Source: an uncultured Candidatus Saccharibacteria bacterium (lineage in GTDB: Bacteria > Patescibacteriota > Minisyncoccia > Phycocordibacterales > UBA5272). From it: DNA of 64,000 nucleotides. The stretch covers positions 14,758-78,757 of the forward strand of contig CAZUPO010000001.1 in assembly GCA_964621595.1 (NCBI GenBank), given 5' to 3'. How positions within the stretch are numbered: the first letter of the stretch is position 1; every line of letters starts with the position of its first letter. The notes below the pieces were generated by a model. It did not search any database, was not told the origin of the DNA, and worked only from the letters and a program-made list of their open reading frames with translations. A program made the translations under genes and the position numbers. Below, one piece after another: positions 15,172-52,755 of this stretch.

Positions 15172-15175
15172 ACCC

Positions 15176-16360: not shown

Positions 16361-16376
16361 TTGTTTATACATCATA

Positions 16377-17026: not shown

Positions 17027-17050
17027 TACCAAAAGTACTCTAGAACTAAC

Positions 17051-22004: not shown

Positions 22005-22009
22005 CAAAT

Positions 22010-22047
22010 AAAAACTAAAAGGCCGGGTCGCTGTCGCGACCCGGCCC
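22010..22047 (-). terminator. Intrinsic terminator oriented for the minus-strand GC-rich genes E1/E2
   Basis: GGCCGGGTCGC…GCGACCCGGCC stem with a T-run on the minus strand. Confidence 0.6.
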
Positions 22048-22064
22048 TGCCTCGTGCCCGAGAC

Positions 22065-22767: not shown

Positions 22768-22926
22768 CTGTCCTCCCGGACGATTATAATGCGTTGTTGG
22801 GTTTGTGCTGCTTCCACGCAGTACTCTATCAAAAAATACCCACTTTGTTAAACGCACACTCTCCAAGAGGTAAACCCATGCGACCTTATCATGCATCTGC
22901 TATACTTTAGAAACTTACAATTTTCC

Positions 22927-23940: not shown

Positions 23941-23943
23941 AAC

Positions 23944-23975
23944 AAAAACGACCCCTGGGGTCGTTTTTGTTTTTC
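23944..23975. terminator. Bidirectional intrinsic terminator (A-run, AACGACC…GGTCGTT, T-run)
   Basis: Symmetric A and T tracts flank a GC stem; lies downstream of rplU (-) and of the GC-rich region (+). Confidence 0.7.
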
Positions 23976-23988
23976 TTACAAATCGAGA

Positions 23989-24393: not shown

Positions 24394-24441
24394 GATATAT
24401 AACGCAGTTCCACGCAAAAAACCATAGAAAGGACCCACCCG

Positions 24442-24756
24442 ATGTTCACGCACTCCTCGTTTTTGCTTTCTCTGCTGTGCGTCTTGGCATGGCTCACCCT
24501 GGGACTCCTGAGTGTCCTGGTGCACTTCCAAGATTTGCACTTCCGCGAGGAGGTGCTCGATGACCTCGACGGAAGCAACGGCCCGGTGGCGTTCGTATCC
24601 GGGTGGATAGCGGGCGTGATCTACGTCTGCATCATCGGCGGGTTTTATGCCATTGCCCACATCGTGGAGAAGATCAAAGCCGGTCTCCAGGCAATCAAGG
24701 AGACCCTGCAACTCTACTACGAGTTGCTCTTCCCTGACGACGATGCCGAGGCCTGA
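24442..24756 (+). CDS. Small hypothetical membrane protein (2 TM), GC-rich cassette F
   Basis: Two hydrophobic helices and an acidic C-terminus; high GC. Confidence 0.45.
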   Translation: MFTHSSFLLSLLCVLAWLTLGLLSVLVHFQDLHFREEVLDDLDGSNGPVAFVSGWIAGVIYVCIIGGFYAIAHIVEKIKAGLQAIKETLQLYYELLFPDDDAEA

Positions 24757-24787
24757 CCAGCGTCATTAGCCCCCAACCCGTTCGCTT

Positions 24788-24816
24788 CAAACCCCCGCCC
24801 GTGCGGGGGTTGTTTC
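24788..24816 (+). terminator. Intrinsic terminator (CCCCCGC…GCGGGGG followed by a T-run)
   Basis: AAA, then a 7-bp GC stem, then TTGTTTC. Confidence 0.7.
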
Positions 24817-24833
24817 ATTCTAGAGAAACATTT

Positions 24834-25877
24834 TTATTCTTCCTCAAAATTTGGTTTATCAAGGAGTGATGGTGTGACACCGTGCTCTTCTCCGGTAATA
24901 CGAAGCACGTCTTTATCAATCTTTTTTAATTCTTTGTATGCGGTATTGTAATGATTCACTGTTGTACCGAGCGTAAGGCCGAGTTTCTTCATGTATTCTT
25001 CATACACAGCGATATGTCGACCGAGTTCCCCTACGCGCTTTTCTATATGTTTTGCACTTTCTTCAATTTGAAATGCTTTGAATCCAAAGAGTACTGATTG
25101 CAGATATGCGTAGAATGTCGTCGGAGAAACAATCACAACCTTTTTCTTATGATATGCGTACTCAATCAAATTCTGTGTATTGATGGCACCGGCCGCAACT
25201 TTATTAACCAAAAGATCGTAGTAAATGCCTTCGGCTGGTATGAACATAAATGCAAACGGTAGCGTCCCCTCATCTGGGCGAATATATTTCGCCGTCTCAT
25301 CGATGCGCTCTTTTATGTCTTTCTTAAACTCTGTTTGATAGTATGCCTCGTCTTCCTCGTCGACGGCATTCATGAGACGATGATAGTTATCGAGTGAATA
25401 CTTTGCGTCGATCGGAATGATGCCATCTTTGGTACGGATGATTGCGTCTACCACCTCACTGTTGTCGAATCGATACTGCATCTCATACTGACCTGGGGCG
25501 AGCATGTTGGAGAGAATGAGCTCAAGAGACGCTTCTCCTAAATTTCCACGTTGCTTTTGATGAGTAAGTACTTTCTCCAAATTTTGTAATTGCTCTGTCA
25601 TGGAAAACACTTGTTTGTTCCCCTCTTTGACTTCAGTTAATTCTCGTGTGATTTCGGTGATCAGCCTCTTCGCTTCCGAGTCCTGTCGATGAAGCACTTG
25701 GTGCAATTCTGATTGTGATCGCTCCAATTTATGCTCGACTGCATTACGCAACTTTTCCAACTGATCCTGAAGAATGAGTAACCCTTGATCAGAATTTTCC
25801 TCTTTTGGTTTCTTAAAAATAATAACAAGGAGTAAGACAATGACAACCCCACTTAGAATATAAAAAGATACTTCCAT
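24834..25877 (-). CDS. rmuC: DNA recombination protein RmuC
   Basis: N-terminal TM plus coiled coil, C-terminal RmuC nuclease-like domain; start taken at MEVSFYIL. Confidence 0.8.
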   Translation of the reverse strand: MEVSFYILSGVVIVLLLVIIFKKPKEENSDQGLLILQDQLEKLRNAVEHKLERSQSELHQVLHRQDSEAKRLITEITRELTEVKEGNKQVFSMTEQLQNLEKVLTHQKQRGNLGEASLELILSNMLAPGQYEMQYRFDNSEVVDAIIRTKDGIIPIDAKYSLDNYHRLMNAVDEEDEAYYQTEFKKDIKERIDETAKYIRPDEGTLPFAFMFIPAEGIYYDLLVNKVAAGAINTQNLIEYAYHKKKVVIVSPTTFYAYLQSVLFGFKAFQIEESAKHIEKRVGELGRHIAVYEEYMKKLGLTLGTTVNHYNTAYKELKKIDKDVLRITGEEHGVTPSLLDKPNFEEE

Positions 25878-27089: not shown

Positions 27090-27118
27090 TTGACTTAGTA
27101 AGTTTTTTATTTTATTAT
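27090..27118 (+). promoter_or_regulatory. sigma70-like promoter TTGACT-17-TATTAT for the G operon
   Basis: Read directly; RBS GAGGAG before ATG at 27167. Confidence 0.55.
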
Positions 27119-27166
27119 TAAGGTCGGAAAGTTCCCACCACCCCGCAACCAGAGTGAGGAGACCCC

Positions 27167-27517
27167 ATGGGGAAACGTCAGTACAGCCATGAGGACGCCC
27201 TCCTCGCGGTGCGTTTCGCAGTGTGGTACGCAGCCGCACGCGAGAGTTGGAAAAAAGGTGAACCTCACCCGATCCGGCTCACCCGCAAGTTCGCAGAGGA
27301 TAAGGATATTCTGGCCCGACATATGGGTCATGATTCCTACCGAGCGATGCCTGCCGATACGAAAAGTTTGATCGGTATGGCTGCTGCCAAGATGAAGAAG
27401 CAAAAGAAGGAGTTGAGAGATGGCGCCCGTAATGATCTCGACCCCTTCGAACTCGTCCTTCGCGACGTCATCGCTGACCTCACGAAGGGCGAGCAGATCA
27501 ACGCCGTACCGAAATAA
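27167..27517 (+). CDS. Hypothetical protein G1 (116 aa), GC-rich
   Basis: High GC; operon with G2 (11-nt gap, RBS GGAGACCC). Confidence 0.45.
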   Translation: MGKRQYSHEDALLAVRFAVWYAAARESWKKGEPHPIRLTRKFAEDKDILARHMGHDSYRAMPADTKSLIGMAAAKMKKQKKELRDGARNDLDPFELVLRDVIADLTKGEQINAVPK

Positions 27518-27528
27518 GGAGACCCATC

Positions 27529-27774
27529 ATGTCGGACCCCGACACTTTGAAGGAAATCGAGACGACACTTGCGGGGGTGATCAACCCCAACACGGTCGTT
27601 GCGATCATGAGCGAATTCCTCGGCATCACCAAGGAACAGCTCGAGAAGAATCACGACGGCTCGACCCCGTGGGTGCGCCAAGAAGTGCTGAAGGTCGCAT
27701 CCAAGAAGAACTCCGCTGATCGAACGCACATGCTGGCGAAAATCCAGCAGATCATCGCAGAGAACTCGCGATGA
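27529..27774 (+). CDS. Hypothetical protein G2 (81 aa), GC-rich
   Basis: Immediately downstream of G1; followed by a strong terminator. Confidence 0.45.
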   Translation: MSDPDTLKEIETTLAGVINPNTVVAIMSEFLGITKEQLEKNHDGSTPWVRQEVLKVASKKNSADRTHMLAKIQQIIAENSR

Positions 27775-27792
27775 GGCACGAACCGGCGGAAA

Positions 27793-27826
27793 GAAGCCCG
27801 CCCCGGAACAACGGGGGCGGGCTTCA
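27793..27826 (+). terminator. Intrinsic terminator (AGCCCGCCCC…GGGGGCGGGCT)
   Basis: 10-bp GC stem and a weak T tract. Confidence 0.6.
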
Positions 27827-27856
27827 ATACTTTATATACCACGAACCCTTTTTTAA

Positions 27857-28576
27857 TTATCTAAAACTGCAGACGACCGGCATAGACACCCGCGTTACGT
27901 CGCTGGCAGACACCGCATTACCTGATTGAAAGATCATCATGCACTGTAACTTATCAGGAAGAGTACCTTCTATTTTTACTTGAAAACGTTTCCAACCAAG
28001 CGGTGACCATGCATTTGTCATATACGCAGTGGATGCGGCAATAGGTCTACCTTGACTATCAGCGATAAGAACCACGAATTTCCCATCACGGAAAAAAGTT
28101 TCTTTTGCCTCACCACCAAAGGTCAAACCACCGTAAACGTATCCCCCTTGATAGATAGAGAGGTTGCGAATATATGACTCTTTGGACGCGTATGCCTGTC
28201 GTACCACCTCCCCATTATTTGTAACAGGATTACCAGAAGAATCCACGACAACTGCACCATCATTGGTAAATGTTAAAAACTTCGTCTCCGTCCATGTATA
28301 TCCAGACTGATACGGTGCTGTACCATACCCGTTGTACGGCGCTGTGGGGACAAATTCTCGTGGTTGTGCCGGCTCTGCTTTGTACGCAAGCAACCCCGTT
28401 AAACTTCCTGGTGGAGGCAACCATGTAAATGACATCGTAGTAGTATCAAACGATACAAAATTGCGCAAACGCACAGTAGGGAAAAGTTCTGTGATGAGCC
28501 ACCACACAATCGCAAAGAAAAGCAATGCAACTGCAAACCGTACGAGAAATGATAGAAGGTAGCGAATAATATCCAT
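27857..28576 (-). CDS. Hypothetical membrane-anchored extracellular protein
   Basis: N-terminal TM; beta-rich Gly/Tyr/Thr composition. Confidence 0.55.
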   Translation of the reverse strand: MDIIRYLLSFLVRFAVALLFFAIVWWLITELFPTVRLRNFVSFDTTTMSFTWLPPPGSLTGLLAYKAEPAQPREFVPTAPYNGYGTAPYQSGYTWTETKFLTFTNDGAVVVDSSGNPVTNNGEVVRQAYASKESYIRNLSIYQGGYVYGGLTFGGEAKETFFRDGKFVVLIADSQGRPIAASTAYMTNAWSPLGWKRFQVKIEGTLPDKLQCMMIFQSGNAVSASDVTRVSMPVVCSFR

Positions 28577-33321: not shown

Positions 33322-33627
33322 CTAACGAAGGTATGAATACAAAAGGGTGGAGAAAAATACAAAAACAGTTACTGAAAAATATAAGACGGTGGTGGTAAAG
33401 AATTTCAGTGCTTCTTGTTTCTTATTTTCAGCATATAGGCACAGTGGCTTATAAAAAAATAAAAATGCCATTACCGTAACAGATAGAACAAGGAGTGAGA
33501 GCATAAACATTGGTATAAGGAGTGTGTCTTGCTTGTCGTGTCCGTATTTAGTTAACACCTGTATAAGAGCAATTACGAAACCAATGTAACAGGTGGCCCC
33601 GAGAGCATTTAGAAGTGGTGTTTTCAT
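33322..33627 (-). CDS. Small hypothetical membrane protein
   Basis: Three hydrophobic helices. Confidence 0.45.
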   Translation of the reverse strand: MKTPLLNALGATCYIGFVIALIQVLTKYGHDKQDTLLIPMFMLSLLVLSVTVMAFLFFYKPLCLYAENKKQEALKFFTTTVLYFSVTVFVFFSTLLYSYLR

Positions 33628-33668
33628 AGAGTAAAGTGTACCACGACTTGCGATTAAGAAATGTGAAA

Positions 33669-33722
33669 GCCCCCGGCCACCCGCCCGCGTTTTCCTTTCG
33701 CGAGGCGAGGTGGCTGGGGGCC
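33669..33722 (-). terminator. Imperfect GC-rich hairpin terminator downstream of the H operon
   Basis: GCCCCCGGCCACC…GGTGGCTGGGGGC. Confidence 0.4.
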
Positions 33723-33733
33723 TTTGCCGCCTT

Positions 33734-33982
33734 TCACGGCGCCTCCATTGTGCAGACCATCGGGTCGGCGTTGATCGCGTCGCACAGCGCCTGCAAGTGC
33801 CGACGCAACTGCCGCGGGGTCATCTCCTCCACCGGGTCGGTGAGCAACTCGTGTTTTCCGTCCAGAGTTGCCAGCACCTCACTGGCTTTCTCGATCTCGG
33901 AGAGGAGATTACTGCGCTCCACTTCCGGTGACGCGTGTCCGCAGGGTTTCGCGGTGTACGGCATGATTCTCCTTTCTGCCAC
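33734..33982 (-). CDS. Hypothetical protein H2 (82 aa), GC-rich
   Basis: Second gene of a two-gene GC-rich operon; RBS AAGGAG. Confidence 0.45.
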   Translation of the reverse strand: MAERRIMPYTAKPCGHASPEVERSNLLSEIEKASEVLATLDGKHELLTDPVEEMTPRQLRRHLQALCDAINADPMVCTMEAP

Positions 33983-33992
33983 AAGGGCAAGT

Positions 33993-34241
33993 TTACGTAG
34001 TCAAGGTTTGGATTGTCTTCTGCAAGTCCGCTTGGTACTTCTCGAGGGCCTTCACGAACTCGAGATCACCTACCGGCTTGCGTCCGTCATTCCACTTTGC
34101 CAGATGATTGTCGATATCATCTGAGCCCCGGAGAAGTTTGTGCTTCGGGTCGAGTTTGCGCAACTCACCTTCGGCACCAGCAACCATCTCGGATAGTTGG
34201 TTGAGTGCAACCATAGCCTCCCGTTTTACTAGGGTGTTCAT
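33993..34241 (-). CDS. Hypothetical protein H1 (82 aa), GC-rich
   Basis: First gene; RBS GAGGGGAGACGGAGC; coiled-coil-like. Confidence 0.45.
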   Translation of the reverse strand: MNTLVKREAMVALNQLSEMVAGAEGELRKLDPKHKLLRGSDDIDNHLAKWNDGRKPVGDLEFVKALEKYQADLQKTIQTLTT

Positions 34242-34486
34242 GCTCCGTCTCCCCTCATAACTACAGTTATAAACGCGTCCTCACTACCACAAGGGAGGAA
34301 GACATTTGTACAGATTGATCTCCATAGTACCCTATTACCAAGAAGATTTCAAACCATATTAATGTTCTAAGATCAAAGTAATTACAAAAGCAAGATAGAA
34401 GATTCATTCTGTCAGCCGATATATACATAAATGAAAAAGTTTAAAATTTGTAAAACATTTGCCATGTGTTCTACGTGATACAAATA

Positions 34487-35510: not shown

Positions 35511-36278
35511 ATGTGCACAGTCAATGATGGTAGTTCGTTCTTCCGGCCGATGACCATGATGGACATCGCCTTCATTGCCACCAAGTACAACGAGTTGCCG
35601 AGGCAATTGCTGTACGACCTCTACGAGGCAATGACGGATCACAACACGGTCCGGCCGGCGGTTATGCTGGTGATCCTCGAGAGCCTTCACCGGCTCAAGA
35701 GCGGTCATCTGGGTGCCAGCGCCTACGGTGCCGTCTTCGCCTACAGCGCCCTTCAGATCAAGGATGGTGGTGATGGCAACATCTTCCACCGGTACCAGGA
35801 TCCGATCATGTCGCACATCCACGACGCGATGCTTCAATTCGCTCTCGCGGAACGCAACATGCGCAAGGTTCAGGAAGTCCTCCGTCGCTATCAGTACGAC
35901 TTCGTCCACTTTTGCGATTGCGGCTGCATAACCACTGTGGTCGACGTCGATTTCATGGAGACGGAGGAGTACAAGGCGGTGAACCTCATCCGCTCCTATG
36001 GCGAATCGATTGGGGCGCCGGTGCACCAGGTGAAATCGATCGACGATCTCCCCCTTCACCTGACCGACATGCATCCGCACGAGGTCGCCGGTTACAAGAA
36101 GATCTGGGGCACCCTGCAGATGCTCCCCGTCCATCCCTTCGAGGGTACGCTGGAACTCTCGCAGGCATTCGAATACTTGACCAGCATGAAGGAGGGTAGC
36201 AATGCCGGTAGCGGCCGTCGTTCGTGTATCAACGCAGTGGGGGCCAAGACACCGGTTGCAGATCACGCTGCCCGATAA
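35511..36278 (+). CDS. Hypothetical protein I1 (255 aa), GC-rich cassette
   Basis: AGGAG RBS 8 nt before ATG at 35511, where GC rises; the 35439 start in the ORF track lacks an RBS. Confidence 0.45.
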   Translation: MCTVNDGSSFFRPMTMMDIAFIATKYNELPRQLLYDLYEAMTDHNTVRPAVMLVILESLHRLKSGHLGASAYGAVFAYSALQIKDGGDGNIFHRYQDPIMSHIHDAMLQFALAERNMRKVQEVLRRYQYDFVHFCDCGCITTVVDVDFMETEEYKAVNLIRSYGESIGAPVHQVKSIDDLPLHLTDMHPHEVAGYKKIWGTLQMLPVHPFEGTLELSQAFEYLTSMKEGSNAGSGRRSCINAVGAKTPVADHAAR

Positions 36279-36501
36279 CGATGTGGTTAACGTACGCCTC
36301 CATGCGTGCGAAGACTGCAGCTTCATCGAGTGGAGTAAAGCAACCGGAAAAGAGGTTGCTCAGACAACCGTAAGTGAAGCATTCCTCCGGGCTGTGGCGA
36401 ATTTGGTCACCTCCGGAGAAAACCGAAAACTCCCTGAACTTGTCGCCGAAGGGCAGCAAGCACTTGGAGATTACGCCAAGAACCCGCCCTTCAACACATA
36501 G
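36202..36501 (+). CDS. Hypothetical protein I2 (99 aa), GC-rich, overlapping the I1 3' end out of frame
   Basis: 77-nt overlap with I1; followed by a weak terminator at 36519-36550. Confidence 0.35.
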   Translation: MPVAAVVRVSTQWGPRHRLQITLPDNDVVNVRLHACEDCSFIEWSKATGKEVAQTTVSEAFLRAVANLVTSGENRKLPELVAEGQQALGDYAKNPPFNT

Positions 36502-36597
36502 GGACCAGGATTGTGGCAAGCCGTCCTCGTGAGGGGGCGGTTTATTTTTATAATTCTAATCTTTGTGCCTCCAATAGACTCCAGAACATATTGCAAT

Positions 36598-40041: not shown

Positions 40042-40650
40042 CTAGATATTTTTATACCCTTTCCATTCTCTTTTCAGAAGACTGTAAAGAAGATCGTTTT
40101 GATATTCTCCGTTTACCTTGTGATAGTCTCTTAAAATTCCTTCGCACGTAAATCCGAGTCTTTCTGGTATTGCTTTGCTTTTGAGATTATTCATCTCACA
40201 CTGGATTTCAATACGATTGAGATTTAATTCCGTAAAACCATAGTTGATGATTGCTTTCACACACGCAGTCATGATCCCCTTACCCTGATACTCTCTATCG
40301 AGCCAATACCCTATGGCGGCCCTGTGGTGATCGTGTCGGATATCATGAAAGCCCATTGAACCGACCCACTTCCCCTCGTACAGAACTCCGAAGTCGGCGC
40401 TTGTTTTTTCTTCAAAACCCTTTTTACATTTCAGAATAAAATCTTCTACATCTTTATCAGATGTTGTTGTATCGATCCAATCCAAATATGGACGAAACGC
40501 TTCTCGATTCTTTTCCACCAACTGAAAAAAGTGTTGAGCATCTTCCGGCTTTCTTAATCGTAAAGAAAGATTATCGTGTACTTTTAGTTCAAAATCCATA
40601 CTGGAAGTATACCACTTGGGTTGTTGGGCAGGATTGAAATTTAAAAGCAA
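40042..40650 (-). CDS. GNAT-family N-acetyltransferase (RimJ/RimL-like)
   Basis: GYWLDREYQGKGIMTACVKA motif. Confidence 0.8.
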   Translation of the reverse strand: MLLNFNPAQQPKWYTSSMDFELKVHDNLSLRLRKPEDAQHFFQLVEKNREAFRPYLDWIDTTTSDKDVEDFILKCKKGFEEKTSADFGVLYEGKWVGSMGFHDIRHDHHRAAIGYWLDREYQGKGIMTACVKAIINYGFTELNLNRIEIQCEMNNLKSKAIPERLGFTCEGILRDYHKVNGEYQNDLLYSLLKREWKGYKNI

Positions 40651-40695
40651 AAACCCGCAGAAGCGGATCGTTGCTAATGCGAGTGGTATTGGGCC

Positions 40696-41061
40696 CTAGG
40701 GCTGGACGGTCGTCGCCTTGAAGAGGTCGAATTCGTCGTCACCCAGCGGGTTGTTGTAGTCCGGCATGAAGTCCATGTCGCGACGCGCATCCACGGAACT
40801 ATCGTGAGTGCGGAAGTCGCAGTCGTCACCGAAGGTGATGCCGGGATCACCGTTGGCGGCAGCCCCTTCGCAGATGTGCCGCTGGAGTTCCTCCGCCTTG
40901 GGAGTCATGACGCGGAGCACCTTCATGCCACCCATCCGACCACGCTGCACCTTGGTGATGCCGAAACCCGTGGCCGTGTTCCTCAGGTACTTGATGAGCC
41001 GCTCCACCTCCACGGAGGTGTCGTAGCCGGTGTAGACATCCAAGCAGTACGATTCTTGCAA
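40696..41061 (-). CDS. Hypothetical protein J, GC-rich cassette (probable TTG start)
   Basis: AAGGAG RBS 7 nt before TTG at 41061, where GC rises; the alternative ATG at 41121 lacks an RBS. Confidence 0.4.
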   Translation of the reverse strand: MQESYCLDVYTGYDTSVEVERLIKYLRNTATGFGITKVQRGRMGGMKVLRVMTPKAEELQRHICEGAAANGDPGITFGDDCDFRTHDSSVDARRDMDFMPDYNNPLGDDEFDLFKATTVQP

Positions 41062-41184
41062 GGCAATTCTCCTTTTCAAAATTACTCTATTAAGGGAAGG
41101 GTTGTACCCGTCTTGTAACATACTACAATATGAAAATAATTCTGTCTAGTTGCTGGTCGAATCGAACTAAAAATTCTTGGAACA

Positions 41185-41474
41185 AAATTGGATGTATTAT
41201 ACATTCCTCTAATCTTCAGATTTACTATCAAACTCCGTCTGCATTCTGGTCATCCATGCGTTTTTATTTTCACCAGTTCTGGCTTCCATACTCATAATAC
41301 TAGCCGTGTGTGCTTCATCAGATGTCATGTGAGGCATTCCTTTCTGGATAACTTCCATAAAAGTATCTCCAGAAAATTTCTCGTCGCAAGTTCCTCCCAA
41401 TTCTCGACATGTAAATGTTTTGCTCATATGAATTGAGTATACCATTTTTTCTGCGCTATTTTTGTGTGTTGCTG
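41185..41474. repeat. 290-bp direct repeat R1a (100% identical to 44141-44430) carrying a DUF1059 gene
   Basis: Identical ORF translations at +2956 offset; nucleotide-level identity over 290 bp. Confidence 0.9.
41209..41427 (-). CDS. DUF1059-family small protein (copy 1)
   Basis: MSKTFTCRELGGTCDEKFSG…H…H fits the DUF1059 C..G.CD pattern; the plus-strand 82-aa ORF is antisense noise. Confidence 0.6.
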   Translation of the reverse strand: MSKTFTCRELGGTCDEKFSGDTFMEVIQKGMPHMTSDEAHTASIMSMEARTGENKNAWMTRMQTEFDSKSED

Positions 41475-41580
41475 AGCGTCTCGGGTTAGAACCAAAGGGT
41501 TCATTGCACTGTAAGGCTTTGGTGGCTATTTTTAGTATAGCATTTCCACGCGTCTCGAGCGCTGTAAAATTACTGTCGAA

Positions 41581-42996
41581 TTACTTATAGTTGTTTCTTT
41601 TGTGTTCAATATAATCAACGAGCAATTCATAAAATAAACTCTCGTCTCTAACATCTTCTGCCTTTACAAAAGAATTTTCAAAAGTATCCCATTCAATTAG
41701 ATATTTTTTCCAATAGAATGATTTTTCTGGTCTTTCTGGTTTTAGCGATTTAAGCATAGCCGTTATATAAGGCTTGAACGGCATTCTCTCTTGTGTTCTT
41801 CGTGGTGATTCTTTGATGATAGAAATGACTTTTAGGAAGCCTTTTATGTCTGTAAAGCTTAATATTGCGACCCGGATAGCAATATTAAAATACATTTCAA
41901 ATTCATCAGTTCTCAAGTTTTGAATATTAAATCCACCCTTTTTTAACTCTAGGAATTGAAACCGAGTAGGCTTAAGCAACCCTCGAAGTGTCAACGCCTG
42001 ACTTTCAACTGCACGAACAAAAATATGTTCAAGAAACAATTTAATATATCCTCCCTCCCCAATAGCACTTATCATTTGAGGATTTTCATTTTTTATACTT
42101 TTAACTATTTCTTCAACAGTATCTACCACAGCTTGCTGGTTATCGAAGCGATACGGAGCAATAGTAAAAAACTTATTCACGTAACCTGAAAAGTCCGTCT
42201 CAACGCCATACTTGTGATGAAATATGTGCTCAAGATTTGCGTAATCTGCGACAACGATTATGATATCGAACCCAAACCTATTCTCATTTTCTCGTTCAAA
42301 AAAGGCAGAGAGGAGATTTAGCACCCTAAATATATGCTCTGGATCTACCCTGTCTAAATCATCCAAAATAAGAACACTTTTCTTTATGCCTTTTTGTTGT
42401 GAAATTTTTTCTTTTACCAGATTGCTAACATAATCCGGCTCAGTAATATTCTTAGATTTTATTTCAGCAGTATATTTTTCTATTAGGCCTTTATCACCTG
42501 CCTTATATTCTGTCTTAAACTCCTGAAAATCCTTATCGAGATCTAGTAAGTCTTTCAACGGTCTGCCTAATTTTGCTAAAACACTGGTTATTGGATCGGC
42601 AGACAACGAGGCAACATCTTCACCTCCTGAAATAATTTTCTGAAGAACATCGTTTACTGTATATCTATCTTTTATCCACGACCAAAATAGTAGAGACGAT
42701 TCTTTGATCCCGTTCACAGATTTTTCTTCAAAAATATCTTTATTCTTTTTTAGAAGCTCGATAATGACATCGTATTTAAGGAGACCCACAATATCATCAT
42801 TAGCACTAATTTGATAGTTTATTGGATACAAATGAAAGGCTTCATATGAATCATGATTTTCTTTGAAAAACTCATTGAGAAAATGTGTCTTTCCTGCACC
42901 AAACTTACCTGAAAATAGAATTCGAGAATTTTCTTCCATTGAAAGAAACTCACTGAAATCTTTCTTTGCGGTATCAATTGGTATTTTAATAGCCAT
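41581..42996 (-). CDS. KAP-family P-loop NTPase
   Basis: Walker A GKFGAGKTHFL and the KAP-specific Walker B VLILDDLDRVDP; 471 aa. Confidence 0.75.
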   Translation of the reverse strand: MAIKIPIDTAKKDFSEFLSMEENSRILFSGKFGAGKTHFLNEFFKENHDSYEAFHLYPINYQISANDDIVGLLKYDVIIELLKKNKDIFEEKSVNGIKESSLLFWSWIKDRYTVNDVLQKIISGGEDVASLSADPITSVLAKLGRPLKDLLDLDKDFQEFKTEYKAGDKGLIEKYTAEIKSKNITEPDYVSNLVKEKISQQKGIKKSVLILDDLDRVDPEHIFRVLNLLSAFFERENENRFGFDIIIVVADYANLEHIFHHKYGVETDFSGYVNKFFTIAPYRFDNQQAVVDTVEEIVKSIKNENPQMISAIGEGGYIKLFLEHIFVRAVESQALTLRGLLKPTRFQFLELKKGGFNIQNLRTDEFEMYFNIAIRVAILSFTDIKGFLKVISIIKESPRRTQERMPFKPYITAMLKSLKPERPEKSFYWKKYLIEWDTFENSFVKAEDVRDESLFYELLVDYIEHKRNNYK

Positions 42997-43060
42997 GAGT
43001 TGATTATATCGCTGTTAGTAAAAAAACAGAATGGACGCATCCTGAGCGACGCTCTTGTTT

Positions 43061-43251
43061 GCTGGGGTACAAGGACTCGGTCACGAAGTCTATTTTTAGA
43101 TTACAAAAAATATAAGACTTCTCGACCCCGTATTCGAGTCCTTGCCGAAAGTGACGCAGGTCACTTTCTTACCCCATCAAAGCGTAAGTTTAAAGAATGC
43201 TACGCATACAGTATATAATTCGCTTTGCTGGGGTACAAGGACTCGAACCTC
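43061..43251. repeat. 191-bp direct repeat R2a (copy of 46597-46786) containing two tRNA-Gln 3'-end fragments
   Basis: tRNA 3'-end copies at 43059-43080 and 43227-43252; internal 9-bp perfect hairpin GAAAGTGAC-GCAG-GTCACTTTC. Confidence 0.85.
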
Positions 43252-43381
43252 TTCGGATGCCAGGAACTCAGCTCAAGTTGGGTTGATATGGACAAAGTAT
43301 AAAAAATATTGTAGTGTACTTTTTAGCGGGTCACTCTTCCCCAACCAATTAAGAGGATCATTCCACCTATGAGGAGGCTCT

Positions 43382-43981
43382 ATGCCCGCACTCGATCGAC
43401 AAGAAGGATACTTGGTAGCGCACGAAACCCTGCTGGCCGAACTCAAGGCCATGTGGGCAGATCCCAAGGTCCAGCTCTACAACGATGCGGAGCTTCCCGC
43501 GTTCAGCGATACCGCCGTGTTCCTGGCCGGGCCGACGTCGCGCAACCAGATCCTGGAATGCCAGTGGCGTGCCAAAGCGGTCGCGTTTCTGCGCAAATAC
43601 GGCTTCGAAGGATGGATCTACTGCCCGGAACCGCGGGGATTCGAAGCTCCCGGCGATTTCACCGAACGGGGCTACATCCACCGCTGGGAATCCAGTCGGC
43701 TCTTCACGCCCACCACGTGTGCTGAGTACGCCGTGTTCTGGATCCCGCGCAAGGCCGACGAACTGCTCGGGCTCAACACGAACCTCGAGCTCGGCATCAT
43801 GATCGGCAAGTGCATGATGCGAAACGATTACGAGCGGAGGAAGCTCTTCGTCGGTTGGCCGGACAGCGCGGAGCGCATGGGACTCCCGAACCATTACATG
43901 GGCGAGATCGTCCTCGAGCGGTACACCGCGCTTGACACAATCTGCGCCGACCTGGCCGCATCCGTCAGGAATCGCCGTTAG
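43382..43981 (+). CDS. Nucleoside 2-deoxyribosyltransferase / DNPH1(Rcl)-like protein, GC-rich cassette K
   Basis: AVFLAGPTSRN (cf. YFCGSIRGG) and NTNLELGIMIGK (cf. S.GVGYELG, catalytic Glu); RBS AGGAGG. Confidence 0.5.
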   Translation: MPALDRQEGYLVAHETLLAELKAMWADPKVQLYNDAELPAFSDTAVFLAGPTSRNQILECQWRAKAVAFLRKYGFEGWIYCPEPRGFEAPGDFTERGYIHRWESSRLFTPTTCAEYAVFWIPRKADELLGLNTNLELGIMIGKCMMRNDYERRKLFVGWPDSAERMGLPNHYMGEIVLERYTALDTICADLAASVRNRR

Positions 43982-44001
43982 GATCTCTTCACGAGGTCCG
44001 G

Positions 44002-44030
44002 AAGCCACCTTCGGGTGGCTTTTTTCTTTC
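44002..44030 (+). terminator. Intrinsic terminator (GCCACC-TTCG-GGTGGC followed by TTTTTTCTTTC)
   Basis: UUCG tetraloop hairpin plus T-run. Confidence 0.75.
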
Positions 44031-44140
44031 ATAAAATAAGTTAAAAGTTCGAGTGCCCTAAGAGGGTCAATAAAACTACATTTTTTGTTCACACAAAACC
44101 CTTATGAATTCAGTGCAACTTGGACGCTAGAACCTAGCTC

Positions 44141-44430
44141 AAATTGGATGTATTATACATTCCTCTAATCTTCAGATTTACTATCAAACTCCGTCTGCAT
44201 TCTGGTCATCCATGCGTTTTTATTTTCACCAGTTCTGGCTTCCATACTCATAATACTAGCCGTGTGTGCTTCATCAGATGTCATGTGAGGCATTCCTTTC
44301 TGGATAACTTCCATAAAAGTATCTCCAGAAAATTTCTCGTCGCAAGTTCCTCCCAATTCTCGACATGTAAATGTTTTGCTCATATGAATTGAGTATACCA
44401 TTTTTTCTGCGCTATTTTTGTGTGTTGCTG
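44141..44430. repeat. 290-bp direct repeat R1b (identical to 41185-41474)
   Basis: See R1a. Confidence 0.9.
44165..44383 (-). CDS. DUF1059-family small protein (copy 2, identical)
   Basis: Identical to copy 1. Confidence 0.6.
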   Translation of the reverse strand: MSKTFTCRELGGTCDEKFSGDTFMEVIQKGMPHMTSDEAHTASIMSMEARTGENKNAWMTRMQTEFDSKSED

Positions 44431-44506
44431 GGAGTTGGGTGGGAAGTTGAAACTTTTTTGTTTGTAAATGGGGTATAATTCAATTATATATATTAATTAT
44501 AAAAAA

Positions 44507-45121
44507 ATGAAAAAAACACTTGTTTTTGTCTTTTGTTTCTTGCTAACACAATCAGTTTTTGCTCTAACTCTAACTCCACCAAGAATTGAACTCACACTAA
44601 GTAGGGGTGAGAGCGCCTCAAGTGAACTTGTTGTAATAAATGAAGAACTTCCAAACAATACACCAGATAAAACTTATTATATTTCTGTTGAAAAACTCAA
44701 TAACAAGAAGTCAGGAATATCTTTTACATCAGGTGACTATAGTAATTTAGTTAAAGTGCCCGAGAAGATTACAATTAGGAACGGGGCAACTGTAAAAATA
44801 CCATTCTTAGTCACTCTTCCAGACGACGCTATCCAAACATACAATTTTACGATATTTTTGAGTACTTATAAACCCGAAGATGAAGGGGAAGTTGTTGGAG
44901 CAAAAGTGGGTTCTTTTCTTTTGATTCATGTGCCAAATGGTTACACAGAATCAGCGGTAGTTACTCAACCTGTAAAAGTAAATTTAGTTAAGAAAGCTCC
45001 TGCAATAACCCTAGTAAGTACCAGCACAAAAGAACAACCTGTTTCTGGTTCAGTAAGAAGTTTTAGGGATAAATTTATGAATTGGATTATCTCTTTTAAA
45101 AACATTTGGGTTAATAATTAA
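44507..45121 (+). CDS. Hypothetical secreted protein
   Basis: Signal peptide MKKTLVFVFCFLLTQSVFA; start taken at the MKKT codon. Confidence 0.55.
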   Translation: MKKTLVFVFCFLLTQSVFALTLTPPRIELTLSRGESASSELVVINEELPNNTPDKTYYISVEKLNNKKSGISFTSGDYSNLVKVPEKITIRNGATVKIPFLVTLPDDAIQTYNFTIFLSTYKPEDEGEVVGAKVGSFLLIHVPNGYTESAVVTQPVKVNLVKKAPAITLVSTSTKEQPVSGSVRSFRDKFMNWIISFKNIWVNN

Positions 45122-45241
45122 TACTTTATTAAATTAGTTATTTTGTTTCTGATCTCATCGGATTCGGATATTTCCATACCTTACCCAGCAAACTTTTATA
45201 AGCATTTTCAGTTGTACTATTTTAATGCACTTCGGAACAAC

Positions 45242-45679
45242 CTAATTCCACCTGAGGAGGTATAGGAAACCTCCAATAATTACCCCTGCTACAACAGCAA
45301 GAAAAACTATTCCAAATGGTTTTTCATACCAATTTTTCGGATGTCGTTTTTCATTTTTTTGATTTTCGAACTTTATAAGAGTGCCGTCACCAACTATAGT
45401 GTTATCTTTAATTACCCCGCTGAAATAATTGTGATTTTCCTGACTGTGGCTACTCACACTATTACCAGTTCTACTTTTTACCGAAAGCCTTTCATATAAA
45501 AGTTTTCTTTTGTATTCGGTATCAGCAATATCTTTTTTAATTAAATAGATATCTCTACCTCTCCAACGATATGATTCTTCACTAGCATTCTTCTCTTCAC
45601 GTAATTGAATTAGCCTAGAATCAAGAAGCTCTAGTTGTTGTTCTTCGGGGAGTCCTCTTCTCCAAAAATAATTGTCCAT
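45242..45679 (-). CDS. Hypothetical protein with a C-terminal TM anchor
   Basis: AT-rich ORF; C-terminal hydrophobic helix. Confidence 0.5.
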   Translation of the reverse strand: MDNYFWRRGLPEEQQLELLDSRLIQLREEKNASEESYRWRGRDIYLIKKDIADTEYKRKLLYERLSVKSRTGNSVSSHSQENHNYFSGVIKDNTIVGDGTLIKFENQKNEKRHPKNWYEKPFGIVFLAVVAGVIIGGFLYLLRWN

Positions 45680-45711
45680 AGTTATGTTGTATTTAACTTC
45701 TCCTACACATT

Positions 45712-46554
45712 TTATTTTTCTGAAATTTCTTCTATCGCCTCGCGTGTGGTTTTTATTTGTTTACCATTTGGTAATGTTAGAATTGTCTCAATCCGAGCGA
45801 GCAACTCTGTTGGTTCCTGTCTATTATCCTCAACTCGAATCTCTCCTGTTTTACCATCAATAATCAAATGGGCTTTTTCACTAGTACCATCCCTTTTTCC
45901 TATTAAAAGATGTTGATCCTCGCCTTGGGAACGGGACTCAACGAAAAGACCTTCTGTCTCAAGTCGTTTCTTGATTGTTTTTTCAGCTTCATGCTGAGAA
46001 AGTAAATCGAGATAAGGTTGAAATGAGGGCCAGGCGGCCGGGTACGGATATCCGTCCTCAGTAGACCACCAAATTTGTCTTACAGTTTGAAGTTTTCTAA
46101 ATCGTAATCCAGGTAAGCTGTCTGGAGATAAGGTGACTTTTAAATGCTCAATTAATCCTTCGTGTAAAACCTGAACCTCGCTTGTAGTCAGCAAGTTTTC
46201 TTTTATAGCCGTTTCCTTTGCCCAAATTTCTTTTAAAACAGATTTATCTGTTTTTTCTGAACTAACAACAATGGGCAGAGATTCTTTTACTTCAGAAAGA
46301 AGGCCGTTTAAGATACGCTTTCTATTGTCTAATTCTTTGAGGTATTGAGAGCGATTAAAACTCGGATCAATATAAGAAGTTGTCATAGTCCTCTGTTGTT
46401 TAAAAAGATTTAAACCATCCCCTCCAAAAATCTGTCTTACAAGTTTTTCTGTAGACTGTTCCCATATTTGGTATTCCGGTCCCCAATTTTCAATACCTCT
46501 TAATGTATCAATTTTTGAGATTTGTTCTTTTAATTTTGAAAGGTTTTCATCCAT
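45712..46554 (-). CDS. Hypothetical protein (280 aa)
   Basis: AT-rich ORF; no motif recognised. Confidence 0.5.
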   Translation of the reverse strand: MDENLSKLKEQISKIDTLRGIENWGPEYQIWEQSTEKLVRQIFGGDGLNLFKQQRTMTTSYIDPSFNRSQYLKELDNRKRILNGLLSEVKESLPIVVSSEKTDKSVLKEIWAKETAIKENLLTTSEVQVLHEGLIEHLKVTLSPDSLPGLRFRKLQTVRQIWWSTEDGYPYPAAWPSFQPYLDLLSQHEAEKTIKKRLETEGLFVESRSQGEDQHLLIGKRDGTSEKAHLIIDGKTGEIRVEDNRQEPTELLARIETILTLPNGKQIKTTREAIEEISEK

Positions 46555-46596
46555 ATAGCTTTAATGTTTTAATACTCTTCGAACTCGCTCAACGTG

Positions 46597-46786
46597 GCTG
46601 GGGTACAAGACTCGGTCACGAAGTCTATTTTTAGATTACAAAAAATATAAGACTTCTCGACCCCGTATTCGAGTCCTTGCCGAAAGTGACGCAGGTCACT
46701 TTCTTACCCCATCAAAGCGTAAGTTTAAAGAATGCTACGCATACAGTATATAATTCGCTTTGCTGGGGTACAAGGACTCGAACCTC
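46597..46786. repeat. 190-bp direct repeat R2b; its last 24-26 nt are the genuine 3' end of tRNA-Gln
   Basis: Differs from R2a by a single G deletion in the first tRNA-fragment copy. Confidence 0.85.
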
Positions 46787-46833
46787 GATACTCAGGACCA
46801 AAACCTGATGTCCTACCATTAGACGATACCCCA
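46763..46833 (-). tRNA. tRNA-Gln (anticodon UUG)
   Basis: The reverse complement gives TGGGGTATCGTCTAATGGTAGGACATCAGGTTTTGGTCCTGAGTATCGAGGTTCGAGTCCTTGTACCCCAG: 7-bp acceptor, TTTTGGT anticodon loop, GGTTCGAGTCC T-loop; close to E. coli tRNA-Gln. Confidence 0.85.
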
Positions 46834-50364: not shown

Positions 50365-50823
50365 CTACTTCTTCTTTGATTTCTTTATTGCAGGATACGA
50401 AAAATCTTTTCGGAACGATACTCCGTGTGGCATGTACCCAAGAGATTTATAAAATGTATGAAGCCATTCCTTGCTGGTGTGAAGACTAGACTTGTAGTGA
50501 CCTCCCTCTTCTGTAATTTGATTTATTTTGTCCATAATTGCTCTTCCTACACCTCCACCTCGATACGCCTCGTCAACAAGAAGTCCTTCGAATATAGCGT
50601 ACGGACGACCGTCATGCTTCTTGCGATCAACACCAGGATCATGAACACCTGTTATCACCATCCCCCAACCAAATTCCTTCTTTGTTTTCTTATCGACCGC
50701 AACAACAATCTTTGGAATAAGCGGTTTACCACGGACAACTTTAAGTGTGTAGGAACTATTCTTAGATGCTCCAGAAACTTTTGCAGGAACTTTTTTTGTA
50801 GCGTTTGCTTTTTTAGTTGCCAT
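50365..50823 (-). CDS. GNAT-family acetyltransferase
   Basis: LLVDEAYRGGGVGRAIM motif; start taken at MATKK. Confidence 0.7.
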   Translation of the reverse strand: MATKKANATKKVPAKVSGASKNSSYTLKVVRGKPLIPKIVVAVDKKTKKEFGWGMVITGVHDPGVDRKKHDGRPYAIFEGLLVDEAYRGGGVGRAIMDKINQITEEGGHYKSSLHTSKEWLHTFYKSLGYMPHGVSFRKDFSYPAIKKSKKK

Positions 50824-50890
50824 GGTGATTATTATTGTATGAGTATGGTGTAAGCGTACCACTTAGGCTAGAGTGGTGTCAAAATGACAT

Positions 50891-50915
50891 AGGAAAAGCC
50901 GCGCGTGGGCGCGGC
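50891..50915 (-). terminator. Intrinsic terminator for L1 (GCCGCGC-GTGG-GCGCGGC, T-run on the minus strand)
   Basis: Sits inside a 46-bp segment identical to 51382-51427. Confidence 0.65.
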
Positions 50916-50938
50916 GTCTTCCAACCAGCGGGTGATGA

Positions 50939-51283
50939 TCATTGCTGCGGGCGCGGTGGACCGATGAAGGGACTCCACTTCAACACCCCGCCGAAGGGCT
51001 CCTCCTCGCGAGCGACAACTTCAGTGCGTTCGAGGTCTTCGAGAACCTTCAGCACCTCTTCGTCGGTACATGGGCTGTAGCCCCATTCCATCAACTGACG
51101 ACCGATAGCGACGACTATCTGCCCGGTGCGCAAGGGCCCACCTTGCTCGAGGACCTCATACCTGACCATTCGGGCGAGTATCCCTAAACGCCGCTTCCCC
51201 TGCTCACGGATCCTGAGAATCTCGACCCCTCCGTAGAGAAGGGCTATGAACAGAACGGGCCAGAAATCCTGGATGACTTGCAT
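50939..51283 (-). CDS. Small membrane-anchored protein L1 (N-terminal TM plus C-terminal wHTH-like), GC-rich
   Basis: Promoter TTGACT-17-TAGTAT; 5'UTR motif TATTCCAA; RBS GGAGGAGG. Confidence 0.5.
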   Translation of the reverse strand: MQVIQDFWPVLFIALLYGGVEILRIREQGKRRLGILARMVRYEVLEQGGPLRTGQIVVAIGRQLMEWGYSPCTDEEVLKVLEDLERTEVVAREEEPFGGVLKWSPFIGPPRPQQ

Positions 51284-51384
51284 GACACACCTCCTCCAAT
51301 TGGAATATATTCATACTAGAATAGAGGTGAGGCGAAGTCAAATACTTTCAAATAATTTAGATAGTATAAAAATAAAATTACCAT

Positions 51385-51409
51385 AGGAAAAGCCGCGCGT
51401 GGGCGCGGC
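51385..51409 (-). terminator. Intrinsic terminator for L2 (identical to the L1 terminator)
   Basis: Same hairpin within the 46-bp perfect repeat. Confidence 0.65.
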
Positions 51410-51433
51410 GTCTTCCAACCAGCGGGTAAAGGG

Positions 51434-51799
51434 TTACGACGAGAGTGGCTCCCATATGTAACTCTCACCCTCCTTCTTCCGAATCACCCTCCCTTCTCGG
51501 TGCAGTTTCTCGAGAATGGTCATCACCCTTTCTTCGGATACGGGTGGTCTGAACGGGATGCTCCAGTAGTCATTGACGATGCTAGTAACCCCCACGACGT
51601 TTCCCCTACCGATCATAGGAAGTCCCCGAGTTTCGATGAACAACTCGAGCGTTTTCTCGCTCGTCTTCTTCCAAGTCAATTTGAGGTAAGCATGTTCCAC
51701 GAGCCACCGCAGGAAAGGAAACAGGCAGATCAATAACAACAACCAGGCAATCCAGTGTTGATACTTCTCCAAGATCGTGGTAACCATGGAGAGTTGCAT
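51434..51799 (-). CDS. Small membrane-anchored protein L2 (paralogous architecture)
   Basis: Promoter TTGACC-17-TATAAT; TATTCCAA motif; RBS GGAGGAGG. Confidence 0.5.
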   Translation of the reverse strand: MQLSMVTTILEKYQHWIAWLLLLICLFPFLRWLVEHAYLKLTWKKTSEKTLELFIETRGLPMIGRGNVVGVTSIVNDYWSIPFRPPVSEERVMTILEKLHREGRVIRKKEGESYIWEPLSS

Positions 51800-51896
51800 G
51801 ACACCTCCTCCTTACTAGGTTGGAATAATTTAATTATACAATAAAAAAATATTTTGGTCAATTCATCTTACAGCATTGAAATATAAAAATTTCCAT

Positions 51897-51924
51897 AGGA
51901 AAAGCCGCGTGTACAAACGCGGCT
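51897..51924 (-). terminator. Intrinsic terminator for L3 (AGCCGCG…CGCGGCT)
   Basis: Degenerate version of the L1/L2 terminator. Confidence 0.6.
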
Positions 51925-51946
51925 GATCCAACAGCGAGTGAGACCG

Positions 51947-52282
51947 CTACGCAGGGGTGATTTTCCACCCCACGACTGCCCTGGTCGGTACCCATACCTG
52001 GGCAACGTTACCTAGGCGTTTACGCTCAGAGAGAATGCTGAGCACCTCTTCTTGGGTAAAGCGATCTCCGTTGTCGATGAAGCCCTCATGCCACTTCATC
52101 GCGTAATCGTTAACCTGCATGAGAATTTCGTCGATCGAGGCGGGATCATTGGAGAGGTGCTGGTTGAGCAACCCCTCCAGGTATTTCCTCCTCTGTTCGA
52201 TATTCTTGCGCACAAGGAAATCTATACCCCGTGCAAAGCAGACAATCGCCAGTATGGCGATTGCAAATACGGTCATTTTCAT
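51947..52282 (-). CDS. Small membrane-anchored protein L3 (paralogous architecture)
   Basis: Promoter TTGACC-17-TATAAT; TATTCCAA motif; RBS GGAGGAGGG. Confidence 0.5.
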   Translation of the reverse strand: MKMTVFAIAILAIVCFARGIDFLVRKNIEQRRKYLEGLLNQHLSNDPASIDEILMQVNDYAMKWHEGFIDNGDRFTQEEVLSILSERKRLGNVAQVWVPTRAVVGWKITPA

Positions 52283-52344
52283 TGTAACAAACCCTCCTCC
52301 GTTGGAATACCGTTATTATACAACAAAAAATGTTCTGGGTCAAT

Positions 52345-52755
52345 CTACTGTCCTTGAGATCGCATTTGAGGTAAGCCATCACGTAACTGTAATGTTTCCG
52401 CTGTGATACTTCCATCACTATTTTGCGTGCCCATAATGACAACAGATGATCCGGTCTTCACATCACTTTTTACACCAGTGACTGACTTCAATACTTTGGT
52501 GGTATCTGTGACAACGATTACCTTGCTTCCACCATCACGCCCCTTGAGAGTTAACATTTGATTGTCGAAAGAAATGACTTCTCCTTGAGTTACTCCCCCT
52601 CCTCCGAAACCCCTTGAAGCACGTTGTCCCCCTTGAAACTGCCGTGGAGAATCAGAAGAAGATTTCTTCATTCCAGCATAATATCCTAGACCAGAAAAAA
52701 TAACTGCGGTAATAATGAGTGAACTGTATATTTGTTTTTTCGAATGTATAAACAT
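52345..52755 (-). CDS. Hypothetical membrane-anchored Gly/Ser-rich protein (last gene of the ABC efflux operon)
   Basis: N-terminal TM; AT-rich. Confidence 0.5.
   Translation of the reverse strand: MFIHSKKQIYSSLIITAVIFSGLGYYAGMKKSSSDSPRQFQGGQRASRGFGGGGVTQGEVISFDNQMLTLKGRDGGSKVIVVTDTTKVLKSVTGVKSDVKTGSSVVIMGTQNSDGSITAETLQLRDGLPQMRSQGQ

Follow-up and report, generated by a model that had tools for sequence, protein, structure and literature searches.

Elements that lack an integrase, are flanked by attachment (att) sites and lie beside an integrative and conjugative element (ICE) are known as cis-mobilizable elements (CIMEs), as in the case of ICESt1/3 of Streptococcus thermophilus, where the integrase is of the tyrosine type and the target is the fda gene. 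Known large serine recombinases (LSRs), to our knowledge, target protein-coding genes. Among serine recombinases of small size, the integrase of phiRSM reportedly uses a tRNA-Ser gene; small integrases of the phiRSM type are listed as ref. 22 in PMC7192596. The same study describes tandem arrays of integrative genetic elements (IGEs) at tRNA genes, in which the att core is restored at both ends so that further elements enter beside the first, and in which recombination between neighbours of the array makes hybrids (PMC7192596). There, 44.5% of the elements with a tyrosine integrase use t(m)RNA genes vs. 4.9% of those with a serine integrase; the latter enzymes are said to be 'not known for targeting tRNA genes', proof being asked for the 14 predicted cases among 297 (PMC7192596). 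A large survey of LSRs leaves tRNA unmentioned (PMC10083194), and the literature searched yielded no description of tRNA-end-targeting LSR elements in bacteria of the Candidate Phyla Radiation (CPR). Here we analyzed a stretch of 64,000 nucleotides (hereafter the window) from an uncultured Candidatus Saccharibacteria bacterium (assembly GCA_964621595.1, contig CAZUPO010000001.1, positions 14,758 to 78,757), which carries at positions 41185-46833 an island of interleaved direct repeats ending in a tRNA-Gln(UUG) gene. The comparison of its sequences with those of related loci suggests, with a probability that we put at about 0.65, that LSR-type integrative elements, inserted in tandem at the 3' end of tRNA-Gln(UUG), have decayed into the present island of this Patescibacteria (CPR) genome.

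The structure of the island is an ordinary one, of the kind found in textbooks (att scars in tandem beside a tRNA gene); the unusual part is the kind of integrase. Like the described tandem IGE arrays, the island has four copies of the att-type core, unit boundaries that fall at cores, and presence/absence variants. Unlike those arrays, which are overwhelmingly built by tyrosine integrases, it is associated with an LSR, its units are all devoid of an integrase, and its repeats, of 190 and 290 nt, are much longer than the core. With the CIMEs it shares a cargo bounded by att-type sequences without recombination genes, near the site of an integrase-bearing relative, whose integrase might by analogy mobilise it, whereas the host phylum, the class of the integrase and the target all differ.

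Gene order and self-comparison of the window agree on the interleaved arrangement drawn in the first-pass annotation: R1a, a KAP-family NTPase gene, R2a, a cassette termed K, R1b, genes for proteins of 217, 145 and 280 residues, R2b, and tRNA-Gln(UUG). R1 and R2 are the only long repeat pairs in the 64 kb, and each unit of the island reads R1–cargo–R2; the repeats that bound K are R2 and R1, which are mutually unrelated. The two copies of R1 are 100% identical, and those of R2 differ by one indel, with 178 nt of perfect match and 99.5% identity over 190 nt. Copies of the tRNA 3' end, called cores, are numbered outward from the tRNA. The elements of this framework are the following:

41185-41474: R1a, a 290-nt repeat, 100% identical to 44141-44430
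43027-43044, minus strand: terminator-like hairpin with T-run, located 17 nt beyond core 4 in tRNA orientation, a pattern match only
43061-43251: R2a, 191 nt, paired with R2b
43061-43079, minus strand: core 4, a 19-nt copy of the tRNA-Gln 3' end that ends in the T loop, a putative att scar of the far-end type
43080-43226: R2a spacer, 147 nt, identical to 46615-46761
43227-43253, minus strand: core 3, a 27-nt copy of the tRNA 3' end (T arm and acceptor strand), joined to the K flank
44141-44430: R1b, a 290-nt repeat, holding copy b of a DUF1059-like gene
46597-46786: R2b, 190 nt, paired with R2a
46597-46614, minus strand: core 2, an 18-nt copy of the tRNA 3' end with one base deleted
46615-46761: R2b spacer, 147 nt, identical to 43080-43226
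46762-46788, minus strand: core 1, the 3' 27 nt of the intact tRNA-Gln
46762-46833, minus strand: tRNA-Gln(UUG), intact (ARAGORN; Rfam 59.9 bits)

The 13-mer GCTGGGGTACAAG, the reverse complement of the 3' strand of the tRNA acceptor and T stem, occurs four times (at 43061, 43227, 46597 and 46762), and 0.05 occurrences are expected by chance; with a copy number so far above that expectation, the repeat observation is real and non-random. Two copies per R2, about 165 bp apart, had been announced from the letters alone, and the core-to-core distances measured here are 166 nt in R2a and 165 nt in R2b. For cores 1 and 3 the match to the tRNA is 27 nt long and extends to the 5' half of the T stem, whereas cores 2 and 4 match over just 18-19 nt and then diverge in the T loop into a common sequence, GTCACGAAGTC; these two kinds of core fit near-end and far-end junctions, as expected. 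In tRNA orientation core 2 is followed by CCA, and so is the copy in the LSR tail of the sister-strain contig described below. The inverted T-arm fragment and the 9-bp hairpin previously reported for each R2 are found in both copies, the former as TTCGAGTCCTTG at 43133 and 46668, the latter as GAAAGTGAC-GCAG-GTCACTTTC at 43147-43168 and 46682-46703. The inverted piece extends further than had been seen, comprising the tRNA 3' end together with its trailer (TTCGAGTCCTTG...TACCCCATCAAAGCG, 43133-43193 in R2a), split by a 25-nt hairpin insertion; it pairs with core 1 or 3 into a long imperfect palindrome with a fold z of -5.6 (RNA) or -8.6 (DNA). We read the spacer as what is left of an element after an internal deletion.

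No intron, riboswitch or sRNA was detected in R2, the tRNA being the sole Rfam match in the 40-48 kb region scanned. A group I intron was considered as the cause of the truncated tRNA copy beside K and rejected, given that the identity stops in the T stem and not in the anticodon loop and that Rfam returns no intron. The exact 31-nt hairpin of R2 has no match in the metagenome or viral contig collections, of which the metagenome one also missed contigs of the Joint Genome Institute (JGI) that carry R2, and the spacer hairpin occurs in no fetched locus outside the species of the window. The hairpin at 43027-43044 is a possible native terminator of the tRNA; terminator-like sites were found by pattern matching, and their count in the region is not above the shuffled expectation. 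As a separate observation, GCTGGTCGAATCGAAC at 41153-41168, between a high-GC open reading frame (ORF) of 141 aa and R1a, is loosely like a collapsed tRNA-Gln core (GCTGG...TCGAAC) and could be a fifth, degenerate scar at the outer end of the array, or a chance likeness.

The link with a serine recombinase comes from a sister strain. Look-up of a 99%-identical variant of K led to a contig of 4,991 bp (JGI 3300045356, here L070), of which positions 4018-4991 correspond to window positions 43222-44195 with 99.8% identity, a stretch that comprises core 3, K and the initial 55 nt of R1. In place of the spacer, core 4 and the KAP gene, which in the window lie upstream of the core, L070 has a low-GC module of about 4 kb, so that its order reads 172-aa protein, 48-aa protein, 374-aa AAA_25 helicase-like protein, 74-aa protein, 591-aa LSR, core, K and partial R1. 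By domain criteria the 591-aa protein is an LSR: it matches PF00239 (Resolvase) with 59.3 bits (cut-off 23.3) and PF07508 (Recombinase) with 32.7 bits (cut-off 21.1); residues Y12, R14, S16 and Q24 of the Resolvase domain are invariant in 24 homologues, and the Zn ribbon is sub-threshold (19 vs. 25.3), with C298, C301, C315 and C318 invariant in the homologue alignment. The LSR ORF runs through the core and stops 50 nt into the K flank, and its end persists in the window as a fossil:

43222-43299, plus strand: last 26 codons of the LSR (tblastn of L070 LSR residues 566-591, 96% identity, E = 2.6e-10)

The enzyme would presumably recombine attP with attB at the tRNA site, and the LSR–core–K arrangement may be either an attP-type junction, as in a circle, or a junction within a tandem array. 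K, R1, the KAP segment and the L070 module together amount to about 6.8 kb, near the size of a 6,879-bp JGI contig carrying an identical LSR; a circular K–DUF1059–KAP–...–LSR element would fit that contig, possibly by mere coincidence. In the window itself we scanned all ORFs of at least 118 aa against Pfam and searched additionally for the LSR by tblastn. No recombinase, transposase or integrase is found among these ORFs, in agreement with the precomputed labels of an overlapping contig (L010) and with what the first reading of the sequence had reported, and the tblastn search of the window returned nothing beyond the 26-codon tail.

The LSR of L070 has 2,220 homologues at E < 1e-20; the few matches with a named source belong nearly all to Patescibacteria lineages, and no relatives were found in viral contigs. 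Analysis of 80 related metagenome loci (L071-L150) reveals that members of the family, about 570-600 aa in length, repeatedly end inside a tRNA gene: in 34 of the 80 loci the LSR ORF runs at its end into a convergent tRNA gene encoded on the other strand; by alignment, the LSR tail enters the tRNA by 25 nt (median), with the stop codon 10-133 nt inside it. Two further loci have an intron-split tRNA-Asn at the LSR end (L072, 11382-11589, and L076, 2084-2339), the group I introns of which hide these tRNAs from ARAGORN (compare PMC13011429), which brings the count to at least 36 of 80; among the rest, several loci stop at the edge of a contig. The tRNAs involved are Asn (14 plus 2), Gln (5), His (5), Trp (4), Ser (4), Tyr and Ala, and fewer than one overlap would be expected by chance, as estimated from the density of the other tRNAs in these loci. 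Across 24 aligned homologues the C terminus has a conserved ...ASxPxWL, whose WL codons are antisense to the tRNA end, CCA included. Two loci closely resemble the window. At a tRNA-Gln(UUG) gene, L132 has three copies of the tRNA 3' end and a 7.5-kb LSR element bounded by a 23-nt direct repeat ending in the T loop. L073 (496-11755) carries a tandem array of two LSR elements at one tRNA-Asn, with recombinases that are 28% identical; the tail of the distal LSR lies over a displaced 15-nt copy of the tRNA-Asn 3' end, after which come the next element, equipped with a D5-type primase and an LSR of its own, and then the tRNA. The L073 junction, made up of LSR, core and far end of the next element, is of the same type as that of L070.

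We consider it on balance probable that these enzymes form a large, so far undescribed lineage of Patescibacteria LSRs that integrate at tRNA 3' ends, with the integrase end antisense to the tRNA. Like the serine integrases of phiC31, Bxb1, SPbeta and TP901-1, the L070 protein combines Resolvase and Recombinase domains and is encoded at the element end by the att site; unlike in these, the last ORF codons of the Patescibacteria family are the antisense of a tRNA 3' end. With the integrases of the phiRSM type the family has in common a serine recombinase that would place the element at the 3' end of a tRNA gene, whereas those enzymes, from a Ralstonia filamentous phage, are small and resolvase-like, without the large C-terminal domain, and of unrelated architecture. 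If the family truly targets tRNA 3' ends, it would offer a handle on gene flow in a phylum of tiny genomes with few described mobile elements, would add LSRs with short, highly conserved and predictable attB sites, and would account for strain-level variable islands in CPR genomes, here with a KAP NTPase.

Structural variants of the locus were sought in natural populations by exact-protein look-ups, which gave 40-odd short contigs from JGI, European Nucleotide Archive (ENA) and Logan assemblies, 99.8-100% identical to the window. All four window junctions that span a whole repeat recur among them. With LF denoting the chromosomal left flank on the side of the 141-aa ORF, LF–R1–KAP is present in L051, KAP–R2–K in L001, K–R1–217 in L050 and L053, and 280–R2–tRNA in L003 and L004. 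The insertion polymorphism to be expected of a mobile locus, which the first-pass annotation had left to comparison with relatives, is also observed: seven assemblies (L049, L058, L061-L065) read LF–R1–217, without the 2,956-bp KAP–R2a–K–R1 segment, most of them with a single-nucleotide polymorphism (SNP) in R1 and one being 100% identical, and three JGI samples (L006, L007, L055) have a 280–R2–K junction. The single-unit form, LF–R1–217..., is commoner than the KAP-containing one. One SNP (C vs. T at 43145/46680) separates R2a from R2b in sample 3300045392. The junctions K–R1–KAP and KAP–R2–tRNA were not found among all contigs obtained. Both LSR–core–K and 280–R2–K are compatible with circles and equally with tandem arrays or an alternative order of the units.

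Site-specific integration is favoured because of the L070 element at the very junction, the overlap of the family with tRNA genes, the insertion polymorphism and the absence of an integrase from the window. The scars would have been made by an LSR of the L070 type, and the events may be pictured as follows. The 3' end of the LSR gene would carry, in antisense, a replacement for the tRNA 3' end, so that upon integration the tRNA would be regenerated beside the LSR gene and the old 3' end displaced to the far side of the element; successive integrations would then leave one core per unit boundary. The integration and replication modules would later have been deleted from the window strain, and what remains would be the four cores, the 147-nt element stump in two copies, the 26-codon LSR tail at the junction of core 3 and K, and two integrase-less cargo units, DUF1059–KAP and K–DUF1059–217–145–280. 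The R1 and R2 pairs may represent backbone or scar segments shared by the elements and homogenised by gene conversion or captured by homologous recombination; alternatively, they could have arisen by capture of host sequence or by homologous integration of a circle. At present, homologous recombination would operate on R1 and R2, and an LSR acting in trans possibly on the cores, which would give rise to the natural variants: an exchange between the R1 copies would produce the single-unit form, and one between the R2 copies 280–R2–K, a junction that could equally come from LSR action on cores 1 and 3 or from the entry of a K-ended element into a single-unit chromosome. The locus of the window would accordingly have to be regarded as a recombination-prone, polymorphic scar array and not as a functioning element.

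Several points weigh against this reading. The identity of R1 (100% over 290 nt) and R2 (99.5% over 190 nt) goes far beyond a core of 20-30 nt, which makes site-specific recombination alone insufficient and an extra step (gene conversion, homologous recombination or capture) necessary; on this point the earlier suggestion of att-like repeats needs correction, the near-identity being a sign of a shared backbone, of gene conversion or of homologous recombination. An LSR beside the intact tRNA-Gln of the window species was seen in no contig, and most of the related LSR loci lack a long direct repeat at the far end within 10 kb. The spacer end near the core resembles the L070 LSR tail weakly (some 16 of 19 positions, allowing for a 2-nt indel); the stump would hence at best come from a related element. 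The signals as to which cargo is native are in conflict between the two sides: on the KAP side lie the terminator-like hairpin and a core that, as in the live tRNA, lacks CCA, whereas the 217/145/280 side is the commoner form and belongs with a 280-aa family that is syntenic with tRNA-Gln in another locus (L067). Moreover, the case for recombination itself is built on comparative evidence.

It is in the long identities that the first alternative, homologous recombination only, finds its footing. R1 and R2 would then be nothing but the conserved flanks of a variable hotspot, given by the DUF1059 gene and the trailer of the tRNA, the KAP and 217/145/280 alleles would have come to lie in tandem through unequal crossing-over or because a chromosomal circle integrated, the tRNA fragments would be passive parts of a duplicated trailer, and the LSR contig would reflect an unrelated later insertion. 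Such a scheme accounts for R1 and R2 identity well past any att core, for a single-unit form that differs by exactly one R1-bounded segment, for the R1–cargo–R2 composition of every unit and for 280–R2–K as the product of an R2 x R2 exchange. It leaves unexplained, however, why two direct copies of the tRNA 3' end and an inverted one lie within R2, why core 3 breaks off precisely at the T stem and is fused there to foreign high-GC DNA, why 26 LSR tail codons lie at the junction of core 3 and K, and why an LSR of a tRNA-targeting family is located at that very junction; a source for K would still be required. We therefore consider this explanation unlikely.

A second alternative, which we hold to be distinctly unlikely, is that the units are still mobile: the 3,535-bp K–R1–217–145–280–R2 segment, or the 166-bp core–spacer–core, would be a non-autonomous element moved in trans by a co-resident LSR, and the identical R2 copies would be independent insertions or attP regions instead of products of decay. 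The 280–R2–K junction, which would be that of a circle or tandem form of the unit, comes indeed from three separate samples and was found together with L070 in sample 3300045356, and the two spacers are identical. The same junction may nevertheless arise from homologous recombination, tandem duplication or an alternative order of integration; 166 bp is too short for a circle to be credible as a substrate; the scans given above, with the shortfall of the metagenome collection already stated, found no copy of the spacer hairpin outside the species of the window; and mobility is not needed to explain the data. That both hold jointly, namely the tRNA-end-targeting LSR lineage and the transport in trans of core-flanked integrase-less units (the 3.5-kb K–DUF1059–217–145–280 and possibly the 166-bp core–spacer–core), appears unlikely; if true, the core-flanked units would be satellite cassettes of a serine integrase, the 166-bp one with a palindrome mimicking the tRNA.

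An assembly artefact, in which strain variants of one locus were concatenated across collapsed repeats, is very unlikely: short-read contigs do break at R1 and R2, several structural forms occur together in samples of the same study and the full order of the island is seen in the window alone, but every whole-repeat junction is present in at least one other assembly, the junctions chain into a single order, the flanks outside R1 and R2 differ, which speaks against a simple duplication of one stretch, and the SNP between R2a and R2b is found within one sample. A classical tyrosine-integrase island with its integrase elsewhere or lost, for which direct repeats of a tRNA 3' end are typical, seems equally remote, as neither the window nor L070 encodes a protein with a Phage_integrase domain and the sole recombinase found at a core is an LSR from a family that systematically overlaps tRNA 3' ends. 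The favoured decayed LSR array hence retains from the first-pass annotation the repeated integration at the tRNA, in view of L070, the family overlap and the polymorphism, and departs from its 'classic' label, the enzyme being most probably of the serine and not the tyrosine class.

The genes carried by the island are as follows:

41209-41445, minus strand: DUF1059-like gene, copy a, 78 aa, or 72 aa from an internal ATG (PF06348, 20.2 bits, just below the cut-off of 21.1)
41581-42996, minus strand: KAP-family P-loop NTPase, 471 aa, cargo of the distal unit (PF07693, 51.7 bits, cut-off 20)
43382-43981, plus strand: cassette K, 199 aa, nucleoside 2-deoxyribosyltransferase-like (PF15891, weak, 22.9 bits), 58% GC
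44165-44401, minus strand: DUF1059-like gene, copy b, within R1b
44468-45121, plus strand: 217-aa protein with an N-terminal hydrophobic segment, no family match
45242-45679, minus strand: 145-aa protein with a C-terminal hydrophobic segment, no family match
45712-46554, minus strand: 280-aa protein of a family conserved in Patescibacteria, 159 homologues, no family match

The 72-aa DUF1059-like product is recorded in 6 contigs. The KAP assignment made at first reading is borne out by the Pfam score, and the connection with defence that accompanied it comes down to the KAP P-loop match and to a weak similarity with the PADLOC candidate PDC-S20 (E = 3.4e-7), the other six proteins having no PADLOC match. 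K has 106 homologues, many of them with a precomputed PF15891 label; its GC content of 58% compares with about 42% for the genome, and the gene is followed by a terminator-like hairpin at 44000-44023. An integron cassette array was considered for K and rejected in view of the missing integrase and the unrelated flanking repeats (attC models were not run). The few named matches of the K and 280-aa families are Patescibacteria lineages. No homologues of K, DUF1059, KAP, 217, 145 or 280 are present inside the 80 LSR loci, which indicates that the elements of this family do not share such cargo as a conserved component. An 86%-identical homologue of the 280-aa protein is found downstream of tRNA-Gln(CUG) in L067, where the tRNA end is not repeated, and the context in L068 is another one. 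L067 has at 8440-9260 a feature of its own, a 17-nt copy of the tRNA D arm (ATCGTCTAATGGTAGGA) that precedes tRNA-Gln(CUG) by 750 nt, the two copies being separated by a LAGLIDADG-like ORF; an insertion of a different type may have taken place at this tRNA-Gln gene.

In the remainder of the window the housekeeping genes dnaB, cysS, recR, those of L9, an AddA-like helicase and enolase are recognised, which together with the best genome matches assign it to a Patescibacteria/CPR genome lacking a close relative among those sequenced; tRNA-Gln(UUG) is the single tRNA gene of the 64 kb. Searching genome contigs with the M32 peptidase gave a best genome of merely 58% identity, which precluded a species-level comparison with an empty site; the tRNA-Gln of L014 is free of repeats in its vicinity, and exact-protein look-ups with VanY returned no record, hence no added contigs from the tRNA side.

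The window further contains at least 11 short high-GC patches (51-62% GC in a genome of about 42% GC), most of them a single ORF wedged among housekeeping genes, as between dnaB and recR:

2591-3240, 10741-11280, 14641-16380, 21961-22840, 24401-24850, 27091-27930: high-GC patches
33571-34290, 35511-36550, 40601-41110, 43311-44070, 50821-51670: high-GC patches, continued

Save for the weak match of K, the ORFs in these patches have no Pfam match. Transfer from a high-GC lineage is one possibility for their origin. A 34-nt direct repeat (2499-2532 and 3201-3234) bounds the first of them. At 50860-52350, three small ORFs of 114, 121 and 111 aa (50-59% GC) follow one another on the minus strand, each with a GGAGG motif before and a near-identical GC-rich hairpin, AAAAGCCGCGCGTGGGCGCGGC, after it, and a 54-nt repeat occurs at 50881 and 51374; this looks like a tandem set of paralogues with their own terminators. 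An internal direct repeat of 151 nt with 81% identity is located at 6953-7262, within a 1,278-aa ORF (4564-8400) that has no Pfam match, and two near-perfect intergenic palindromes, of 41 nt and 39 nt, lie at 23936-23976 and 17048-17086, respectively.

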